This document shows, in pieces, positions 2,389 to 47,170 of a stretch of DNA of 48,156 nt. Below the pieces are notes generated by a model that was given only the letters and a program-made list of their open reading frames with translations, was not told the origin of the DNA and did no database searches. Location: positions 1-48,156 of the IMG/VR virus record IMGVR_UViG_3300042196_000043; one strand, written 5' to 3'. The translations under genes were made by a program, and so were the position numbers. The stretch's first letter is position 1. Each line of letters opens with the position of its first letter. This DNA comes from a virus. Its lineage: Duplodnaviria; Caudoviricetes.

Positions 2389-2569
2389 CATGACCGTCGA
2401 CCGCACGAACAACGACTTGAGCCGCTTTCAGTTCAGCGCCCCCGCATGGTGGGCCGGCTTCAACGCCGGCCGGCAGACCGCGCGCGAGCAGGCGCAGAAG
2501 GAATTGGCCGACTGGCGGGCGAGCGATTGGCAGCGCGACGCGGCGGGGAAGATTGGAGAAGCAGCGTAA
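2381..2569 (+). CDS. Hypothetical protein
   Basis: Overlaps both neighbours in operon style. Confidence 0.55.
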   Translation: MADMTVDRTNNDLSRFQFSAPAWWAGFNAGRQTAREQAQKELADWRASDWQRDAAGKIGEAA

Positions 2570-3570
2570 TGACATGGACTCTCGGAGAGCCCGTCGCGCC
2601 CGGCGCCTACTTCGACATGCCGGAGGACGTTTACCACGCGGCGCCGGCCCTGTCGTCGTCTGGCATCCGCTGGCTGCTGGTCAGCAATCTGGACTTCTGG
2701 GCTCGCTCTTGGATGAATCCTAACCCGATCGAGAATGGCAGCAGCGCAGCGCAGATCAGCGGCACAGCCTACCACAAGCGCATCCTGGAGGGCGGCGCGG
2801 CCTTCTACGACCGCTATGCGCCGGACCTGTTGCCCGAAGAGCATCCCGACGCGCTGAAGACGGCCGACGACATCCGGCGCCAGTTGAAAGAGCTTAGCCT
2901 GAAGGTGGGCGGCAACAAGCCCGAGTTGATCAACCGCCTGAAGGAAGCGGGCAACTTCCCCATCTGGGATGACATCTACGCGGCGCACTGCGAGAAGCAC
3001 GCGGGCAAGATACTGCTGCCGCAGGAGCAGATCAGCGAGATTGAGATCGCCGCGGCGATGATCGAGAAGCACCCGGACCTGTCCAGGGCATTTTCCGGCG
3101 GCCATCCAGAGGTGTCGATCTTCTGGATCGACGAACAAACCGGCATCCTCTGCAAGGCGCGCCTGGACTACCTGAAGGCCCGCGCCATCGTGGATCTGAA
3201 GACTTTCAGCAACCCCCTTGCGAAGCCGATCGACCGGGCGATCAGCACGGCGGTCGCGAGCGGCCGGCTGCATATCCAGGCGACCCACTACATGGAAGCC
3301 GTGGCTATGGCCTGTCATCACGGATGGATCGAGGGCAGCCCTGACCGGACGTTCCTGTTTGTCTGGCAGCAGAGCGGCAAGGTGCCGCTGGCGCGCGGCA
3401 AGGTGTTCCCGAAGGGCTCCACGTTCCAACTCGCCTACCTGCAAATTCGCGAGGCGATGGAGCGGTTCAAGGCGTGCCGGGAGAAGTTCGGGGATGACCC
3501 CTGGATTGATGAGACGCCTATTGAGGAATTTGATGATGCCGGTTTCCCGGCCTACATCGCGGAAGGATGA
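2569..3570 (+). CDS. RecE/exonuclease VIII-like PD-(D/E)XK nuclease (DUF3799-like) with an internal SAP motif
   Basis: YH..PALSSSG, GTAYH, EVSIFW, CKARLD...IVDLKT and Q...Y motifs; adjacent to a RecT-like gene. Confidence 0.85.
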   Translation: MTWTLGEPVAPGAYFDMPEDVYHAAPALSSSGIRWLLVSNLDFWARSWMNPNPIENGSSAAQISGTAYHKRILEGGAAFYDRYAPDLLPEEHPDALKTADDIRRQLKELSLKVGGNKPELINRLKEAGNFPIWDDIYAAHCEKHAGKILLPQEQISEIEIAAAMIEKHPDLSRAFSGGHPEVSIFWIDEQTGILCKARLDYLKARAIVDLKTFSNPLAKPIDRAISTAVASGRLHIQATHYMEAVAMACHHGWIEGSPDRTFLFVWQQSGKVPLARGKVFPKGSTFQLAYLQIREAMERFKACREKFGDDPWIDETPIEEFDDAGFPAYIAEG

Positions 3571-3573
3571 AAC

Positions 3574-4395
3574 ATGAGCGAGAGCAAGGAAGTTGCGACC
3601 CTGGACGAGCCGCGCGAGGGTGTGCGGAGGGTGATGGCGTCGCTCGAGAGCGGACAGCGCGTGGCCCCCATCGTGCCGCGAAATGTGGAAGAGGCTTTCC
3701 GCATCGCGCAGGCCGTGGTGAATGCTGGGCTGGCGCCGGCCTCTTACGAGCGCGACGCACCGAACCCGGACAAGCTGCCCGACGTGCAGAAGATCCTTAT
3801 CGGCATCCTGAAGGGCGCCGAAGTGGGCTTGCCGCCGATCACGGCGCTGTCGACCATCGCGATCATCAACAAGCGCCCTTGCATCTGGGGCGACGGCGCG
3901 GTGGCGCTCTGCCAACAGTCGGGCCACGTGGAGAAGGTGGAGCAGAAGTGGGAAGGCGAGGACGGCAAGGAGGATTGGGCCGCCGTCTATCGCATCTGGC
4001 GCCGTGGGCAGTCCCAGCCCTATGAGGGCCGGTTTTCGGTCAAGGACGCCAAGCGGGCCGGACTGTGGATGAAGCGGTCAACGTGGGTTCAATACCCGCA
4101 ACGGATGCTCATGGCCCGCGCCCGCGCCTACGCCCTTCGCGACGGCTTCGCGGACTGCCTCATGGGCCTCAGCATCGCGGAGGAGATGCGGGATCTTCCG
4201 GCGGAGCCGCAGATGGTGGACAAGTCCTTCCTGGAGGACAGCGCCAGCGACGCGCCGCAGATCACGCACCAGCCAGAGGAGCCGGCGACCGACCCGGACT
4301 TCGCGGAGGTGGACGAAGAGCCGGTCGCCGTGCCAGCCGAGCCGGAAGACACCTTCCCCGGCGATCTGCCATTCCCCGACAGGGCCGCCGAATGA
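3574..4395 (+). CDS. RecT-like single-strand annealing protein
   Basis: GAEVGLPP...IAIINKRP.IWGD, AKRAGLW...W.QYPQRML.ARA...LRD.FAD; acidic tail; follows the exonuclease. Confidence 0.8.
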   Translation: MSESKEVATLDEPREGVRRVMASLESGQRVAPIVPRNVEEAFRIAQAVVNAGLAPASYERDAPNPDKLPDVQKILIGILKGAEVGLPPITALSTIAIINKRPCIWGDGAVALCQQSGHVEKVEQKWEGEDGKEDWAAVYRIWRRGQSQPYEGRFSVKDAKRAGLWMKRSTWVQYPQRMLMARARAYALRDGFADCLMGLSIAEEMRDLPAEPQMVDKSFLEDSASDAPQITHQPEEPATDPDFAEVDEEPVAVPAEPEDTFPGDLPFPDRAAE

Positions 4396-4454
4396 CCCGC
4401 GAGGACGAATACGCCTTCCTGGACATGCTAACACTTAAGAAAGAGGGATAGACG

Positions 4455-4823
4455 ATGGTGATGGATAAAAACGACCTCAGCAAACCCATGTCGGAATTCG
4501 ACTGGCAAGTGCTGTGCCACGTCTACCGCAAGAACGGCCTGCCGACGCTCCCCAGGGCGCGCCTGGACATTCCCCTGGGCTCCACGCTGGAGCGGTGCCA
4601 CACCATTGCGCATCGCCTCGCAGCCCTCTCGCAGGGCATTGGAACGGCCATCCGGCTGGCCCCCACCGCCCGCGCCGGAATGCTTGAGGTGAAGGGGCTG
4701 ATCAACCAGGCCCGGCTGGGCTTCCACGAGCTGGGCAAGGAGTGGGAAGCGGAGTTGCGCGAAGAAGAGGCCAAGCAGAAAAAGCCCGCCGATTCCGAGG
4801 AACACTTGCGGGTGGTAAGGTGA
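4455..4823 (+). CDS. Hypothetical helical protein immediately upstream of the att-like region
   Basis: 122-aa ORF with no recognised motif. Confidence 0.6.
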   Translation: MVMDKNDLSKPMSEFDWQVLCHVYRKNGLPTLPRARLDIPLGSTLERCHTIAHRLAALSQGIGTAIRLAPTARAGMLEVKGLINQARLGFHELGKEWEAELREEEAKQKKPADSEEHLRVVR

Positions 4824-4886
4824 ACAGCTATACTTGGCAGACCTGAGTGACCTACTACAGCTTGTTATTCAGGTCTCCCAAGTAGA

Positions 4887-4914
4887 AGTTACCTGAATAT
4901 AAATTATGCGCCCT
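4887..4914 (-). other. dif-like XerC/XerD site (candidate attP)
   Basis: - strand AGGGCGCATAA-TTTATA-TTCAGGTAACT vs E. coli dif GGTGCGCATAA-TGTATA-TTATGTTAAAT: 21/28 identical with 11-6-11 spacing. Confidence 0.6.
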
Positions 4915-4927
4915 TATCAATGACTTA
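4915..4927 (+). promoter_or_regulatory. IHF-consensus binding site
   Basis: TATCAATGACTTA matches WATCAANNNNTTR and abuts the dif-like site. Confidence 0.55.
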
Positions 4928-5126
4928 GTTAATTGCGCAGACTGGACCCGGCAGGAACCCTTGGTAATATTCTTTCGTTCCCGGTTAAGTCCCTGTCTGT
5001 ACTGACTCTACTAATAGACCCGTTGCGCTTGCAACATGTTTGTCGGAGACGGAAAGCAAGTTTGTTGCCCTGCCCTGTGAGGGGCGAAGCCGGATATTTT
5101 TAATTATGCGCGCTTTGGAGGATGGG

Positions 5127-6002: not shown

Positions 6003-6542
6003 ATGCATGGTTTATGTACGGAACGTGGTTCGGCAGCCTGCTGGCGACCATCACTTGGATTGTCCTGGACAATCTTTAGCATGCTCCGCGTAGCAGCCGC
6101 CCTTCACCGCCTGGAGAAGTGGCTTTGCAGTGCGGTAGCCCGCCGTCCTATCTGTTCTTGCTATGACTGCGGACTACCGTACAACGACCCAGGCTTTGCC
6201 GATCTGGTTGTTCCCAACGACATTTGGGCGAAGATCGGCCCGATAGGACACGAAGGCGGGTTGCTGTGCCCTACCTGCCTGGTGAGGGCGGCAGAAAGAT
6301 CTGGCGTTCAATGCCACGCGGAATTTAGGTCAGGGCCATTTTCAAGCGATTGGCAGGGGATTGAGACTGCGCCCGTTGATGGCCGCGTTGTCGAGGTGCG
6401 GGAGCCAAGCGGAGCTTGGGGCAAGGCAAGAGTCATTGGGCTGCGAGACCCGAATGAATGCCACGAATTCCAGTATGTCTGGGCGTGGGAGGGGCTGTCC
6501 GGGAAGGCGTATCCTGTCAAGTGGCGCCATTGTAGGAAGTGA
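6003..6542 (+). CDS. Hypothetical protein, Cys-rich N-terminal part plus DUF551-like C-terminal part (start uncertain)
   Basis: CYDC and LCPTC motifs; WQGIETAPVDGR. Confidence 0.5.
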   Translation: MHGLCTERGSAACWRPSLGLSWTIFSMLRVAAALHRLEKWLCSAVARRPICSCYDCGLPYNDPGFADLVVPNDIWAKIGPIGHEGGLLCPTCLVRAAERSGVQCHAEFRSGPFSSDWQGIETAPVDGRVVEVREPSGAWGKARVIGLRDPNECHEFQYVWAWEGLSGKAYPVKWRHCRK

Positions 6543-8439: not shown

Positions 8440-8567
8440 GGTGCGGTAGTGGGGTGCCTAACCAGCGCCTCCGCTGCGTAGCTCAATTGGATAGAGCGCC
8501 GGCAAAAGCGGGTGGTTCCGTGAGTACCTAGGTGGTTGCCGGTTCGAGTCCGGCCCAGCACCGCACC
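8440..8567 (+). ncRNA. tRNA-like structured RNA (D and T arms, no canonical anticodon arm)
   Basis: TTGCTT-N17-TAGGAT promoter (8404-8432); TAGCTCAATTGGATAGAGC and GCCGG-TTCGAGT-CCGGC; closing stem GGTGCGGT/ACCGCACC. Confidence 0.7.
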
Positions 8568-32649: not shown

Positions 32650-32869
32650 TGCCCTCTTTCGCCTCGTAGAAGTAGTTCGCCTCCAGATCGGCCAGATATG
32701 CTGCGTGGTCAACGGTCTCCTCGTTTAAGATGCTGGCGGCCTTGGCCAAGTCGAAGAGGCCGTCAAGCCCGGCCGTCTTTCCGTCGTCATCCAGGCCGCA
32801 AGCGCAAACGTCAATCCGAGACTCGGCCAGCGCGGCAAGCAGGCTCTCGGCCGTGATGCCGCCACTCAT
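32642..32869 (-). CDS. Hypothetical protein
   Basis: ATGA overlap with the GroES stop. Confidence 0.55.
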   Translation of the reverse strand: MSGGITAESLLAALAESRIDVCACGLDDDGKTAGLDGLFDLAKAASILNEETVDHAAYLADLEANYFYEAKEGND

Positions 32870-33291
32870 CCCAGCACCGCGCAGATATCGGAATCGTTGC
32901 ACAGGCGGTACTCTTCGCCGTCGTCGCCCTTGGTCACGATGCCGGCATACTTGGCGATGAGGACGCGCTGGCCGGGGCTGGGCTTGGAGCCCTTCACCTC
33001 GCAAAAGGCATTCTCGCCCACAGCTACCAGCGTAGCGCGGCACTCCGCCATCCCGCGCCGCTCTCGTTCCTGGTCCGGAATGAAAATGCTGCCAATCTTG
33101 TCCGCTACGGCGTCCGGCTTCACCAGAACGCGCAGGTCAAGCGGATTGATCCCGCTCGGGTTCTTCATCGTCGCCGGACCGCCGGTCACTGCCCATTTAG
33201 ACTCGGGCGCGAGTCCCATATCTTTCTTGATCTTGCCCACCGCCTCATCCATCTCATTCCGGGTGATCGGGACCACCATCTTCGTCTTCAT
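32866..33291 (-). CDS. groES: GroES-like co-chaperonin
   Basis: INPLDLRVLVKP...SIFIP...LVAVG...GQRVL.AKYAG...GEEYRL.NDSDI.AV. Confidence 0.85.
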   Translation of the reverse strand: MKTKMVVPITRNEMDEAVGKIKKDMGLAPESKWAVTGGPATMKNPSGINPLDLRVLVKPDAVADKIGSIFIPDQERERRGMAECRATLVAVGENAFCEVKGSKPSPGQRVLIAKYAGIVTKGDDGEEYRLCNDSDICAVLG

Positions 33292-42124: not shown

Positions 42125-42577
42125 TCATGCTGTGGCCCTAGCGCGGGACAGTATCTCCGCTGCTCGCCGGTTGATCTCTTCCAAGCTGGTCTGCCAGGGG
42201 TCGATGCCCTGCGCCCGCATGATCTCCATTGCCTCTAGGCGCGCCTTCTTGTGCGCTACCTGCTCTGGCGTCTCTTGTGGCCTGTCGTCTGCACGACTGC
42301 GCAGGTACTGCGGCATGGGGCGCGGTTCTGTGCTGACCGTCTCTGTCTTGCTCTGCACGTCAGCGGGCTGATCTTCCCAGCGGCCCTGGTGCAGCCATGT
42401 CATCGGGTTGCACCATGCTTTCCAAGCGGGCTTGGTTTCCTTGTAGAGAGCAAGCCCGTGCATGATTGCCTCGTGCGAAACATCGCGCCGGACAACCCAA
42501 TATTTCTTCTCTGCGGCCTTCTTGCCTACCTTGTGGGGGTAGGCGGACCAGAAGGCATCGAACATGGAGTCGGTCAC
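42125..42577 (-). CDS. Replication-initiator C-terminal-domain-like protein
   Basis: FDAFW.AYP.KVGK..A and P.TWL.QGRWED motifs seen in phage replication proteins; no N-terminal HTH. Confidence 0.65.
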   Translation of the reverse strand: MTDSMFDAFWSAYPHKVGKKAAEKKYWVVRRDVSHEAIMHGLALYKETKPAWKAWCNPMTWLHQGRWEDQPADVQSKTETVSTEPRPMPQYLRSRADDRPQETPEQVAHKKARLEAMEIMRAQGIDPWQTSLEEINRRAAEILSRARATA

Positions 42578-44917: not shown

Positions 44918-45282
44918 GCTGCGGCCTCCTCCACAAACGGCTCAATCTCGATGCGCACCCCGAAGACATGCGGCGACCACTGGACGGTTCCGCGCTCTAC
45001 AAGGCTGTCGTCTTCAATGATTCCGTGCTTCACCAGAAAGTCCTCCGGGGCCTTCACCAGATTGAAAACGTCCCGGCGCCTCTTATCGGGGCGGCCAAAG
45101 GTGAAGGTCAGCGACACCGGGCCATGAATTGGCTTAACGTTCTGCTTCCGCAGTGCTAAAATTGCTTCTTCCTGCCATGCCTTGTAGGACTTGCTTGGGA
45201 AGCGCCCGCCAGTCTTGCGGCTGTTCACGAACAGGTTGTTGACTGAGGGCGGCCACGGAAGAAAAAGGCAGGTGTAGTTCAT
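44914..45282 (-). CDS. rusA: RusA-like Holliday junction resolvase
   Basis: LPWPPSVN, PDKRRRD.FN..KA..D.L...G.IEDDS.V. Confidence 0.88.
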   Translation of the reverse strand: MNYTCLFLPWPPSVNNLFVNSRKTGGRFPSKSYKAWQEEAILALRKQNVKPIHGPVSLTFTFGRPDKRRRDVFNLVKAPEDFLVKHGIIEDDSLVERGTVQWSPHVFGVRIEIEPFVEEAAA

Positions 45283-45627
45283 GCGTCCGGCACCCACTTG
45301 TAGGTATGGCGCGCGCGGATCTTCCAGATAGCGACCTGGGAGACGGAGCGGCCGAACTCTTCCGAGTACGCCTCAGCCAGCTTCCTGCACGTGCAAAGGC
45401 TGCTGCGGATCTGACGCACTTGCTCCACGGTGAACTTGCGGCGGCGCTTGTCCATCAGCCGCCATAGCCCTCGTGGAGACGAAACAGCTCCTCCACAGTC
45501 GGCAGCGGCACCCGCTCATCAAGCATCCGCTCCTGGGCCATCGCATCAATGCGCTCGGCTTCTGCATGAAGCTGCTTTGCAAGCGTTGCGAGCTTCTCCG
45601 CCGAGTATCTCTGGACGATGTGCTGTG

Positions 45628-45852
45628 TCATGACAGGTGCTCCTTCATGGTCCGATCCCAGCGGGCGGACAGTTCAGCGGGGATGCCATCGCGCCACTCG
45701 GTGATATGCAGGGCCTCTTGTGGCACCAGCCATGCGTCTGCATCGCGATAGACCGCAGCCTTTGCCGCTCGGATAGCCCTGGTCTGGGTATAGCGGTAGG
45801 CCGGATCGCTCCACCGCTTGCGAGCGGCGATCTGTGAGGCGGACTCGCCCAT
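45628..45852 (-). CDS. Hypothetical protein
   Basis: GGAGG RBS; RKRWSDP.YR motif. Confidence 0.5.
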   Translation of the reverse strand: MGESASQIAARKRWSDPAYRYTQTRAIRAAKAAVYRDADAWLVPQEALHITEWRDGIPAELSARWDRTMKEHLS

Positions 45853-46109
45853 CAATGCACCCTCCCCTTCACCGGCAGCGAGTAAACGTTCGCGCCTTCG
45901 ACGGCACCGCCGCACCATGCGTCATCCTCTTCCGGGATGCGCCCACCTGAGAAGAGGGCGCACAGCCCCGCCGCCGCAATGCCTGCTGCCTGCACCGCGA
46001 ACGCAGCAGCAGCCCAGCCGATGCCGAGAAAGACGGCCGCCAGAAGGATCACGCCGAAGCCCACCGCAAGGCCGCAAAACAGGATGAGGTATGCAAGGAT
46101 GGTTCTCAT
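45852..46109 (-). CDS. Membrane protein
   Basis: Long hydrophobic stretch; GAGGAG RBS. Confidence 0.6.
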   Translation of the reverse strand: MRTILAYLILFCGLAVGFGVILLAAVFLGIGWAAAAFAVQAAGIAAAGLCALFSGGRIPEEDDAWCGGAVEGANVYSLPVKGRVH

Positions 46110-46449
46110 GTCAGGCTCCTCACAAAGGGGGCCCCGACTGCCGGGGGGCGACAGCCGGGGCCAGTGGTCGCCAGCGCGCAGGGGATGGCGCGGCGCTTCG
46201 CCGGCAGGGAGGCGCCGGGAAGAGGGTTGCGCGATTTAGCGGTAATCCGTTGTCGCGTTTGGTTTGCCGGGCTGGGTATGCCTACATCCCGGGCCATGGA
46301 CGAACCAATCGCATTTGTGACATTTTGTGGGCATTCCATGCTTGCGCCGTTTACTCCAAAGCGAGTAGGCTTCTGGAAAGCACGCACAGAACGTGCGGTC
46401 ACAGGAGATGGCAGCAGGAGGTTCGCCCCGATATGGCAGGAAAGCGCCA

Positions 46450-46662
46450 CTACTCCCCTCCCCGGCTTGTCTGGGATAATCCGAAGAAGTCTTCCGCCGT
46501 CACGGCGCCTTTGGTCGCTCGGTACAGGCCCTCCAAGGACCCCCTTGACGGGAAGCGCTCGCCGTTGCGCCAGCGGTTCACCGAAACCCGAGACACCTTC
46601 AGCAGGTTGGCCAGGGCTTTCTCTGAAAGGCCATGCTCGGCCATGTACTCGTTGAGCGTCAT
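46450..46662 (-). CDS. cro: Cro-like HTH repressor
   Basis: MTLNEYM...S...LA..L.VS..SVNRW.NG.RFP....T.GAVT..DF; divergent from cI. Confidence 0.85.
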   Translation of the reverse strand: MTLNEYMAEHGLSEKALANLLKVSRVSVNRWRNGERFPSRGSLEGLYRATKGAVTAEDFFGLSQTSRGGE

Positions 46663-46670
46663 GGGAACAA

Positions 46671-46687
46671 TGTACCTAGACGGTACA
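46671..46687. promoter_or_regulatory. Operator OR inside PR (- strand TTGCGC-N17-TACATT; leaderless cro)
   Basis: TGTACC-TAGAC-GGTACA; extra half-site at about 46706. Confidence 0.8.
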
Positions 46688-46756
46688 ATTAGCGCAACAG
46701 GAAAATGTACCCCGCCCGTCGTGGCGGGAACCCTGGATTTGTCGCAAAGTCATGGC

Positions 46757-47080
46757 ATGGAAAAGCGGCCCAACAGAATCGCTGAGTGGCGCAAGGCCAA
46801 GCGGATGAGCCAGGAGCGCCTGGCCGAGCTGTGCGGCACCACCCATGCCACGATCAGCCGGCTCGAGCGCGGCAAGCTTCCTCTGTCAGAACACTGGCTC
46901 CGCACGATAGGCCGCGTCCTGCGCGTCTCCATGGCCGACCTGCTAGTGGCCGAGGAGCAGGAGGCGCTGGAGAGCGCCGCCGACCTTGCCCGCGATATCC
47001 TGGCCTCCCTCCCGCACGAGCAGCGCCGCCAGTGGCTCGAAATGGGCGAGGCCCTAGCCTTCCGGCAGAAGGCGTCTTAA
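46757..47080 (+). CDS. cI: CI-like XRE repressor without an S24 peptidase domain
   Basis: NRIAEWRKAKRMSQERLAELCGTTHATISRLERG; 107 aa; flanked by operators. Confidence 0.82.
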   Translation: MEKRPNRIAEWRKAKRMSQERLAELCGTTHATISRLERGKLPLSEHWLRTIGRVLRVSMADLLVAEEQEALESAADLARDILASLPHEQRRQWLEMGEALAFRQKAS

Positions 47081-47097
47081 TCCCCTCCTGAGAAAAT

Positions 47098-47152
47098 TGT
47101 ACCACATGGGTACATTTTCCGCTTGACCTTCTCTGTACCTTAGCGGTACATT
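47098..47152 (+). promoter_or_regulatory. Two OL operators and PL (TTGACC...TACATT)
   Basis: TGTACC-ACATG-GGTACA (47098-47114) and TGTACC-TTAGC-GGTACA (47134-47150). Confidence 0.82.
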
Positions 47153-47170
47153 GTTCTCATCAACAGCCAG

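Follow-up and report, generated by a model that had tools for sequence, protein, structure and literature searches.

The 48,156-nt stretch of DNA analysed here (the window) is a complete circular podophage genome of 48 kb with a repressor switch, and at positions 4887–4914 of its minus strand it carries a dif-like 28-mer that is real and well beyond chance. Sequence comparison indicates that this dif mimic is conserved and that it lies within a mobile cassette carried by tailed phages that probably infect Alphaproteobacteria. We favour, at a probability of about 0.6, the reading that the 28-mer is an attP for integration at the host dif by the host's XerC and XerD recombinases, like those of TLC-phi and the gonococcal genetic island (GGI), probably helped by IHF and perhaps by the 122-aa protein encoded next to it.

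The ends of the record overlap by 127 nt and IMG/VR classes it under direct terminal repeats as 100% complete, as the preliminary description of this DNA had supposed. Of the 399 frames of at least 50 aa, 117 ORFs were hand-chosen for PHROG searches and 103 for Pfam searches, which found matches to terminase, portal and capsid proteins, P22-like head-closure and ejection proteins, RusA, a replication initiator, RecE/RecT and cI/cro. The terminase, portal, capsid and P22-like head-closure proteins, together with a divergent cI/cro pair and its operators, are those of a temperate lambdoid-type tailed phage. The lambda-like switch named in the preliminary description is likewise present: the frame with the cI-like repressor (46433–47080, plus strand, the true start lying further in) matches HTH_31 at E 1e-10, an HTH-only match in which the S24 domain was not found, and a cro-like HTH gene (46450–46662, minus strand; phrog_35 at E 3e-7, and HTH_3) diverges from it. 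Within positions 46660–47170 several palindromic TGTACC-N5-GGTACA-type repeats flank cI on either side as an OR/OL-like operator set. In the early arm, an exonuclease VIII-like (RecE) protein (2569–3570, plus strand; phrog_412, E 7.5e-49) is followed by a RecT-like annealing protein (3574–4395, plus strand; phrog_561, E 4e-21). The replication-initiator match (PHROG, 42125–42577) is compatible with upkeep either as a prophage or in a plasmid-like state. Two smaller features may be recorded here: a GroES-like co-chaperonin gene within the head module (32866–33291, minus strand) is present in each of the four capsid-related prophage regions used for comparison, and a marginal Rfam tRNA match (29.4 bits against a cut-off of 29) lies at 8473–8560 on the plus strand, where ARAGORN makes no call.

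Six-frame profile searches of the phage genome gave no candidate at E ≤ 10 for a tyrosine recombinase (PF00589) or resolvase (PF00239), no match to the protelomerase (PF16684), large serine recombinase (PF07508) or rve transposase (PF00665) profiles, and none to ParA (PF13614) or ParB (PF02195), in agreement with the earlier remark that no such function was recognised. DUF3653/XafT (PF12375) was also without a match at E ≤ 10 in the six frames; the phage may therefore act in the manner of TLC, but it is not counted among the elements that bear XafT. By these profile searches the phage encodes no recombinase family of its own; structure modelling covered only the 122-aa ORF. Two early-arm ORFs, at 1126–1728 (200 aa) and 6003–6542 (179 aa), have no family match in PHROG or Pfam.

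Read on the minus strand from 4914 to 4887, the site is AGGGCGCATAA-TTTATA-TTCAGGTAACT, which has the 11-6-11 anatomy of a 28-bp dif-like site. Compared with the 28-mer that we take to be E. coli dif it is identical at 21/28 positions (XerC arm 9/11, spacer 5/6, XerD arm 7/11), and it is the sole site in the genome with at least 17/28; more than 19 identities were reached in 0 of 500 block shuffles. As a broader standard, dif-pattern matches were gathered from 106 of 201 alphaproteobacterial and 94 of 201 gammaproteobacterial genomes, and a host dif matrix was built from 24 sites, 20 of them hand-picked from the 106 matching alphaproteobacterial genomes and four from capsid-bearing genomes; this matrix is biased, since its invariant core was set by the search pattern and the alphaproteobacterial picks favoured the closest look-alikes. 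On it the 28-mer scores 28.5 bits, the next site in the genome 0.0 bits and the host dif sites themselves 34.7–46.8 bits, and 28.5 bits was reached by 0/5306 and 0/4844 shuffles in 30- and 50-nt blocks, respectively (0/10,150 together). The closest single host dif (G198/L169) is alphaproteobacterial, with 24/28 identities and the identical TTTATA spacer. Thus, the likeness to E. coli dif that was first described holds as counted, down to the figures for each part, but the best host match is alphaproteobacterial and not E. coli-like. The three parts of the site contribute unequally: the XerC-type arm (4904–4914) scores 15.5 of 18.2 possible bits and is the best such arm genome-wide, the 6-bp central spacer (4898–4903) scores 7.9 of 10.0 bits, and the XerD-type arm (4887–4897) is degenerate, with 5.0 of 19.4 bits and 8/11 identities to that of the G198 dif.

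The exact IHF-consensus box that had been reported to abut the site is indeed there, adjoining the XerC arm at 4915–4927 on the plus strand, and it is the only exact box in the genome. By itself such a box is weak evidence, 105 of 500 shuffles holding one somewhere, but for any given point the chance of one lying no more than 30 nt away is about 0.001; such an exact box is present somewhere in the fetched flank at 3 of the 24 host dif loci. Beyond the box lies a non-coding block (4928–5082) that is 75.8% identical over 186 nt to its counterpart in a second phage, G432, with 50/60 identities at 4951–5010 and 14/16 at 5067–5082; we regard it as a candidate accessory arm and/or promoter. No Rfam match and no CtrA-type box was found in this block, and one sigma70-like site, with 0.4 expected by chance, overlaps the XerC arm. 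A second copy of the XerC arm (5102–5115, minus strand) lies 200 bp away from the first in direct orientation and has no XerD arm beside it. The core is thus accompanied by a conserved accessory block (4915–5115), as in cer and psi.

On the XerD side there is an inverted repeat with 21-bp arms (4831–4884) that bear copies of the XerD-arm motif (DNA fold z −2.4/−3.2); its G432 counterpart has no stable fold, and identity over 4824–4886 is 36/63. The XerD-arm motif occurs three times at steps of about 25 bp within 4831–4899 (4841 plus, 4866–4874 minus and 4891 plus), two of the copies forming the 21-bp inverted repeat, and this triple arrangement is not clearly retained in G432. Paired inverted att sites of the CTX type, in which a single-stranded DNA hairpin makes the attP, were considered and rejected, since the second XerC arm has the same orientation as the first and the inverted repeat does not rebuild a XerC arm.

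G432, the sole relative with the 122-aa gene that could be retrieved with its DNA, is 48,144 nt long, 100% complete by CheckV and without an end repeat. Only 12 of 95 window proteins are shared with it; it has ERF/SSB and an SU10-type capsid instead, it encodes GcrA, and profile searches found no PF00589, PF07508, PF00665, PF13614 or PF02195 match in it. It nevertheless keeps the 122-aa gene and the whole intergenic block in the same position, so that the cassette appears common to two otherwise different phages, in a comparison of two genomes only. Identity to the window is 6/6 in the spacer, 9/11 in the XerC arm, 6/11 in the XerD arm and 11/13 in the IHF box, both changes in the box falling at free positions; the second XerC-arm copy is 13/14 identical at a spacing of 198 bp, and the 19 nt before it match at only 4/19. 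For a comparison level, the fourfold sites of the adjacent 122-aa gene are identical at 24/41. The preliminary description had looked to conservation in relatives as a check, and in G432 the XerC arm, the spacer and the IHF box are kept whereas the XerD arm drifts, so that a conserved XerC arm and centre beside a degenerate XerD arm, the TLC-type arrangement, are seen in the comparison of the two phages. The G432 site as a whole scores 14.9 bits (XerC arm 7.1, spacer 7.9, XerD arm −0.1), a value reached by 5/5444 and 7/5639 shuffles, or about 1 in 1000, and its XerC arm ends in CATAT, with one change at a base that is fixed in the host set. The cassette is also wider than the site first described, comprising the 122-aa gene, a conserved block of about 200 bp and the second XerC arm.

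G432 holds a second Xer-like site (C1:4409–4436, plus strand, in L294) of 17.3 bits, with an exact alphaproteobacterial XerD arm, a near-XerC arm and a non-host spacer, and with an exact IHF box at a distance of 14 bp on its XerC side; that score was reached by 1/5444 and 4/5639 shuffles. The window has no counterpart of this site, which is possibly a resolution site. The same genome has two terminase-like ORFs (C1:2578–4071 and 45233–46750), a LexA-type HTH protein and an FkbM methyltransferase.

The linked gene itself (4455–4823, plus strand) encodes 122 aa and ends 63 nt before the dif-like site. Its product has 18 homologues at 50–97% identity, none with a family label and none (0/18) from an NCBI source, and searches of Pfam, PHROG and PDB gave no family for it. 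The model (pLDDT 82) consists of a short N-terminal part and a long helical hairpin; a fold search with it returned only generic helical hairpins (best Z 8.4) and was uninformative, and ESM Atlas gave no usable match. From its gene linkage, we consider the protein a candidate Xer helper or directionality factor.

The cassette lies where int and attP usually do, a point made in the preliminary description that can be stated more exactly from capsid relatives. GTDB genomes contain 23 relatives of the capsid protein; the nearest belong to Zavarzinia (74%), Minwuia and Gluconacetobacter, and one comes from Hyphomonas. Along the Zavarzinia and Minwuia prophages, a repressor gene is followed by those for an annealing protein, SSB and a tyrosine integrase and then by a tRNA and host genes, and the integrase lies 24–25 kb upstream of the capsid gene; in the phage the dif-like site comes just after recE-recT and one small gene, 22.7 kb upstream of the capsid gene. 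By this equivalent gene order and distance, the site occupies the int/att slot. In this capsid family a missing integrase says little by itself, since four of the five near-complete IMG/VR capsid relatives have neither an integrase nor a dif-like site. The site is not tied to either the capsid or the RecT lineage: a matrix scan of 18 relative genomes and prophage regions peaked at 13.7 bits, and one of 178 capsid/RecT loci at 15.2 bits (L039:2606–2633, plus strand, a capsid-family contig with a good XerD arm). The phage's host probably belongs to the Alphaproteobacteria, as the bacteria carrying capsid-related prophages (Zavarzinia, Minwuia, Gluconacetobacter and Hyphomonas) and the GcrA gene of G432 agree with an alphaproteobacterial dif as the best match to the site.

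Our comparisons with known Xer-exploiting elements draw on the available portions of the papers cited. The signature described for the TLC-phi attP and for difGGI is a XerD arm that diverges beside a XerC arm and centre that are conserved (PMC5357621, PMC9226527). XafT offsets the weak arm in TLC (PMC6744903), XafT-like IMEXs are reported in gamma- and betaproteobacteria (PMC9226527, PMC6744903), and it is posed as an open question whether an activator of another family serves those elements that have degenerate XerD arms but no XafT, the gonococcal island among them (PMC6744903). TLC-phi of Vibrio cholerae resembles the phage in its double-stranded dif-like site, of which the XerC arm and centre are good and the XerD arm degenerate, in having no recombinase of its own (PMC9226527, PMC6744903) and in a candidate helper gene near the site; however, it is a small satellite and the phage a 48-kb autonomous tailed phage with cI/cro, which lacks DUF3653/XafT, has the IHF box and second XerC arm in addition, and likely has an alphaproteobacterial host. 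The GGI and EludIMEX-1 are, like the phage, large double-stranded elements (57 and 29 kb) at dif (PMC5357621), and the GGI shares the conserved XerC arm and centre, the divergent XerD arm and the lack of XafT (PMC6744903), but these are islands rather than phages that form virions, and they are documented in the integrated form whereas the phage is known from its circular form only. The dif-type double jelly-roll prophages of Vibrio (NO16 group) are double-stranded and temperate, with no integrase and a dif-like attP, and within that one group dif-type and int-type lysogeny modules both occur, as they do among the phage's capsid relatives (PMC12715192, PMC9966536); they are small and tailless with xafT as a terminal gene, whereas the phage is tailed and its linked gene is unrelated by profile. 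Enterogokushovirus also has a dif motif in non-coding DNA with a variable XerD arm, and its integration needs XerC and XerD, but its genome is single-stranded DNA of 4.3–4.7 kb, its spacer varies too, and no accessory block is described in the available part of the paper (PMC7062461). The plasmid sites cer and psi have a Xer core with about 180–200 bp of accessory DNA (PMC5357621, PMC6744903); cer uses PepA/ArgR and an 8-bp centre, in contrast to the 6-bp host-like spacer, decayed XerD arm and IHF-type box of the phage. Published dif integration thus covers filamentous phages, gokushoviruses, tailless double jelly-roll phages and islands (PMC12715192, PMC9966536, PMC7062461, PMC5357621), and no tailed phage integrating at dif was found in the accessible portions of the open-licence literature, to which the search was confined.

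If the 28-mer is an attP, integration might proceed as follows: the circular phage genome would recombine with the host dif through host XerC and XerD, as in TLC-phi and the gonococcal island, with XerC binding the conserved arm; the conserved TTTATA spacer would be identical to that of the host dif, which would allow both strand exchanges to be completed. The crossover would regenerate a dif, made of the phage XerC arm and the host XerD arm, beside the IHF box, and the second junction would hold the weak phage XerD arm beside the 122-aa gene. The latter junction would be poorly activated by FtsK, as described for difGGI, and the prophage would therefore stay put. Bending of the ~200-bp block by IHF, together with the second XerC arm, may help to build a synapse for which the weak XerD arm by itself would not suffice. 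The most speculative step is that the 122-aa protein may be a functional analogue of XafT outside DUF3653, or a directionality factor. A bolder version of this reading, which we hold only tentatively and think more probably wrong than right, is that a portable cassette (122-aa hairpin gene, TLC-like attP, IHF box, ~200-bp arm and second XerC arm) replaces int-attP in alphaproteobacterial tailed phages, that host XerCD builds an IHF-assisted synapse like the lambda intasome, and that the 122-aa proteins are a new family of Xer activators or directionality factors unrelated to FtsK-gamma and DUF3653. Were integration at dif to hold, lifestyle predictors based on integrases would call some temperate tailed phages virulent, dif-like sites could point to the hosts of uncultured phages, IHF would be added as a possible Xer accessory factor, and XerCD-exploiting elements would extend to the Alphaproteobacteria. 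The cassette is also a testable candidate for the question of a XafT-independent activator, as that question is put in the available text of PMC6744903.

Three other explanations of the site deserve consideration. The phage could persist as a plasmid-like circular lysogen in which XerCD, IHF and the ~200-bp block act as a cer/psi-like system that resolves dimers made by RecET. The conserved non-coding block beside the core is of the size given for plasmid accessory sequences in the parts of the papers available (PMC6744903; ~180 bp for cer, PMC5357621), only the circular form has been seen, and the site adjoins recE/recT. We nonetheless find this unlikely, and dimer resolution fits less well than attP: no ParA/ParB family was found in the phage genome, the XerD arm is the decaying part and the spacer is host-like, which is the TLC/GGI pattern, the cassette sits in the int/att slot, and the separate 4409–4436 site of G432, with its exact XerD arm and non-host spacer, could serve resolution there.

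It is quite improbable, in our estimate, that the region is a promoter or regulatory region for the genes from 5127 on, in which a regulator of phage or host origin, possibly the 122-aa protein, binds the 14-mer repeat and the resemblance to dif is secondary or a relic. This would account for the double occurrence of the XerC-arm motif, of which the second copy is better kept (13/14) yet stands without a XerD arm, for the IHF box, such boxes being common at promoters, and for the sigma70-like site over the arm, which is to be set against the 0.4 expected by chance; it leaves unexplained the full-length match of 28.5 bits, the exact conservation of the spacer and the 8/11 identity of the XerD arm to that of the G198 dif, and it leaves a cI/cro phage without a route to lysogeny. 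We give very little weight to a phage recombinase that is too divergent for the profiles, or is supplied in trans by a helper, and that acts on the site and targets the host dif. A lambda-type attP consists of a core, an IHF box and a distant repeated arm, which the region resembles, and the two early-arm ORFs without a family could encode such an enzyme; however, neither PF00589 nor PF00239 gave a candidate at E ≤ 10 in six frames, the ORFs at 1126–1728 and 6003–6542 have no tblastn match in the cassette-bearing G432, and the only linked conserved gene is modelled as a helical hairpin of 122 aa.

Returning to the favoured reading of the 28-mer as an attP, integrated copies and further carriers were sought in several collections. 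The sole sequencing run that holds the region, and is probably its source, contains one 36,306-nt contig at depth 31.8 that spans the site, and no joint or loose end was found at the site among the contigs of this run, which drop rare forms. With the 122-aa profile, neither the 73 genomes from the order of G198 nor the 401 Alphaproteobacteria, sets that include no positive-control genome, gave a credible match; the only match among the 401 (G211; E 6e-4, over 55 positions of a 763-aa frame) was judged, without inspection, a likely coiled-coil chance match. Metagenome scans found nothing, and neither the 122-aa protein nor the block had a match in phage and plasmid collections. Lysogeny via host XerCD, as first proposed, is thus favoured by the site, its slot, the lack of any recombinase match in the profile searches and the conservation in G432, but the source run yielded no junction and the searched genomes no prophage copy. 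Pattern scans of IMG/VR led back to the second phage: one of them gave 29 matches, 28 with negative dif scores and one being G432, and another gave G432 only. Four matches of a further scan all lay within a T4-like helicase gene, and one scan returned, with G432, an AT-rich phage that was set aside (9.0 bits, no shared proteins).

Portals of the SU10 type were also surveyed; they occur in 24 of the 401 alphaproteobacterial genomes, 12 of which have a dif-pattern match, and in 0 of these 12 does the match lie within 100 kb of the portal. One locus (G690:C1:1031648–1142212) has three portal genes in a row about 45–50 kb apart, with two integrases within and no dif-like site; this array represents tandem prophages that are not at dif. 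Among the bacterial genomes with capsid relatives, eleven from Gluconacetobacter (L088–L097 and L099) carry the head module at about 63% capsid identity, which suggests a vertically kept or domesticated element.
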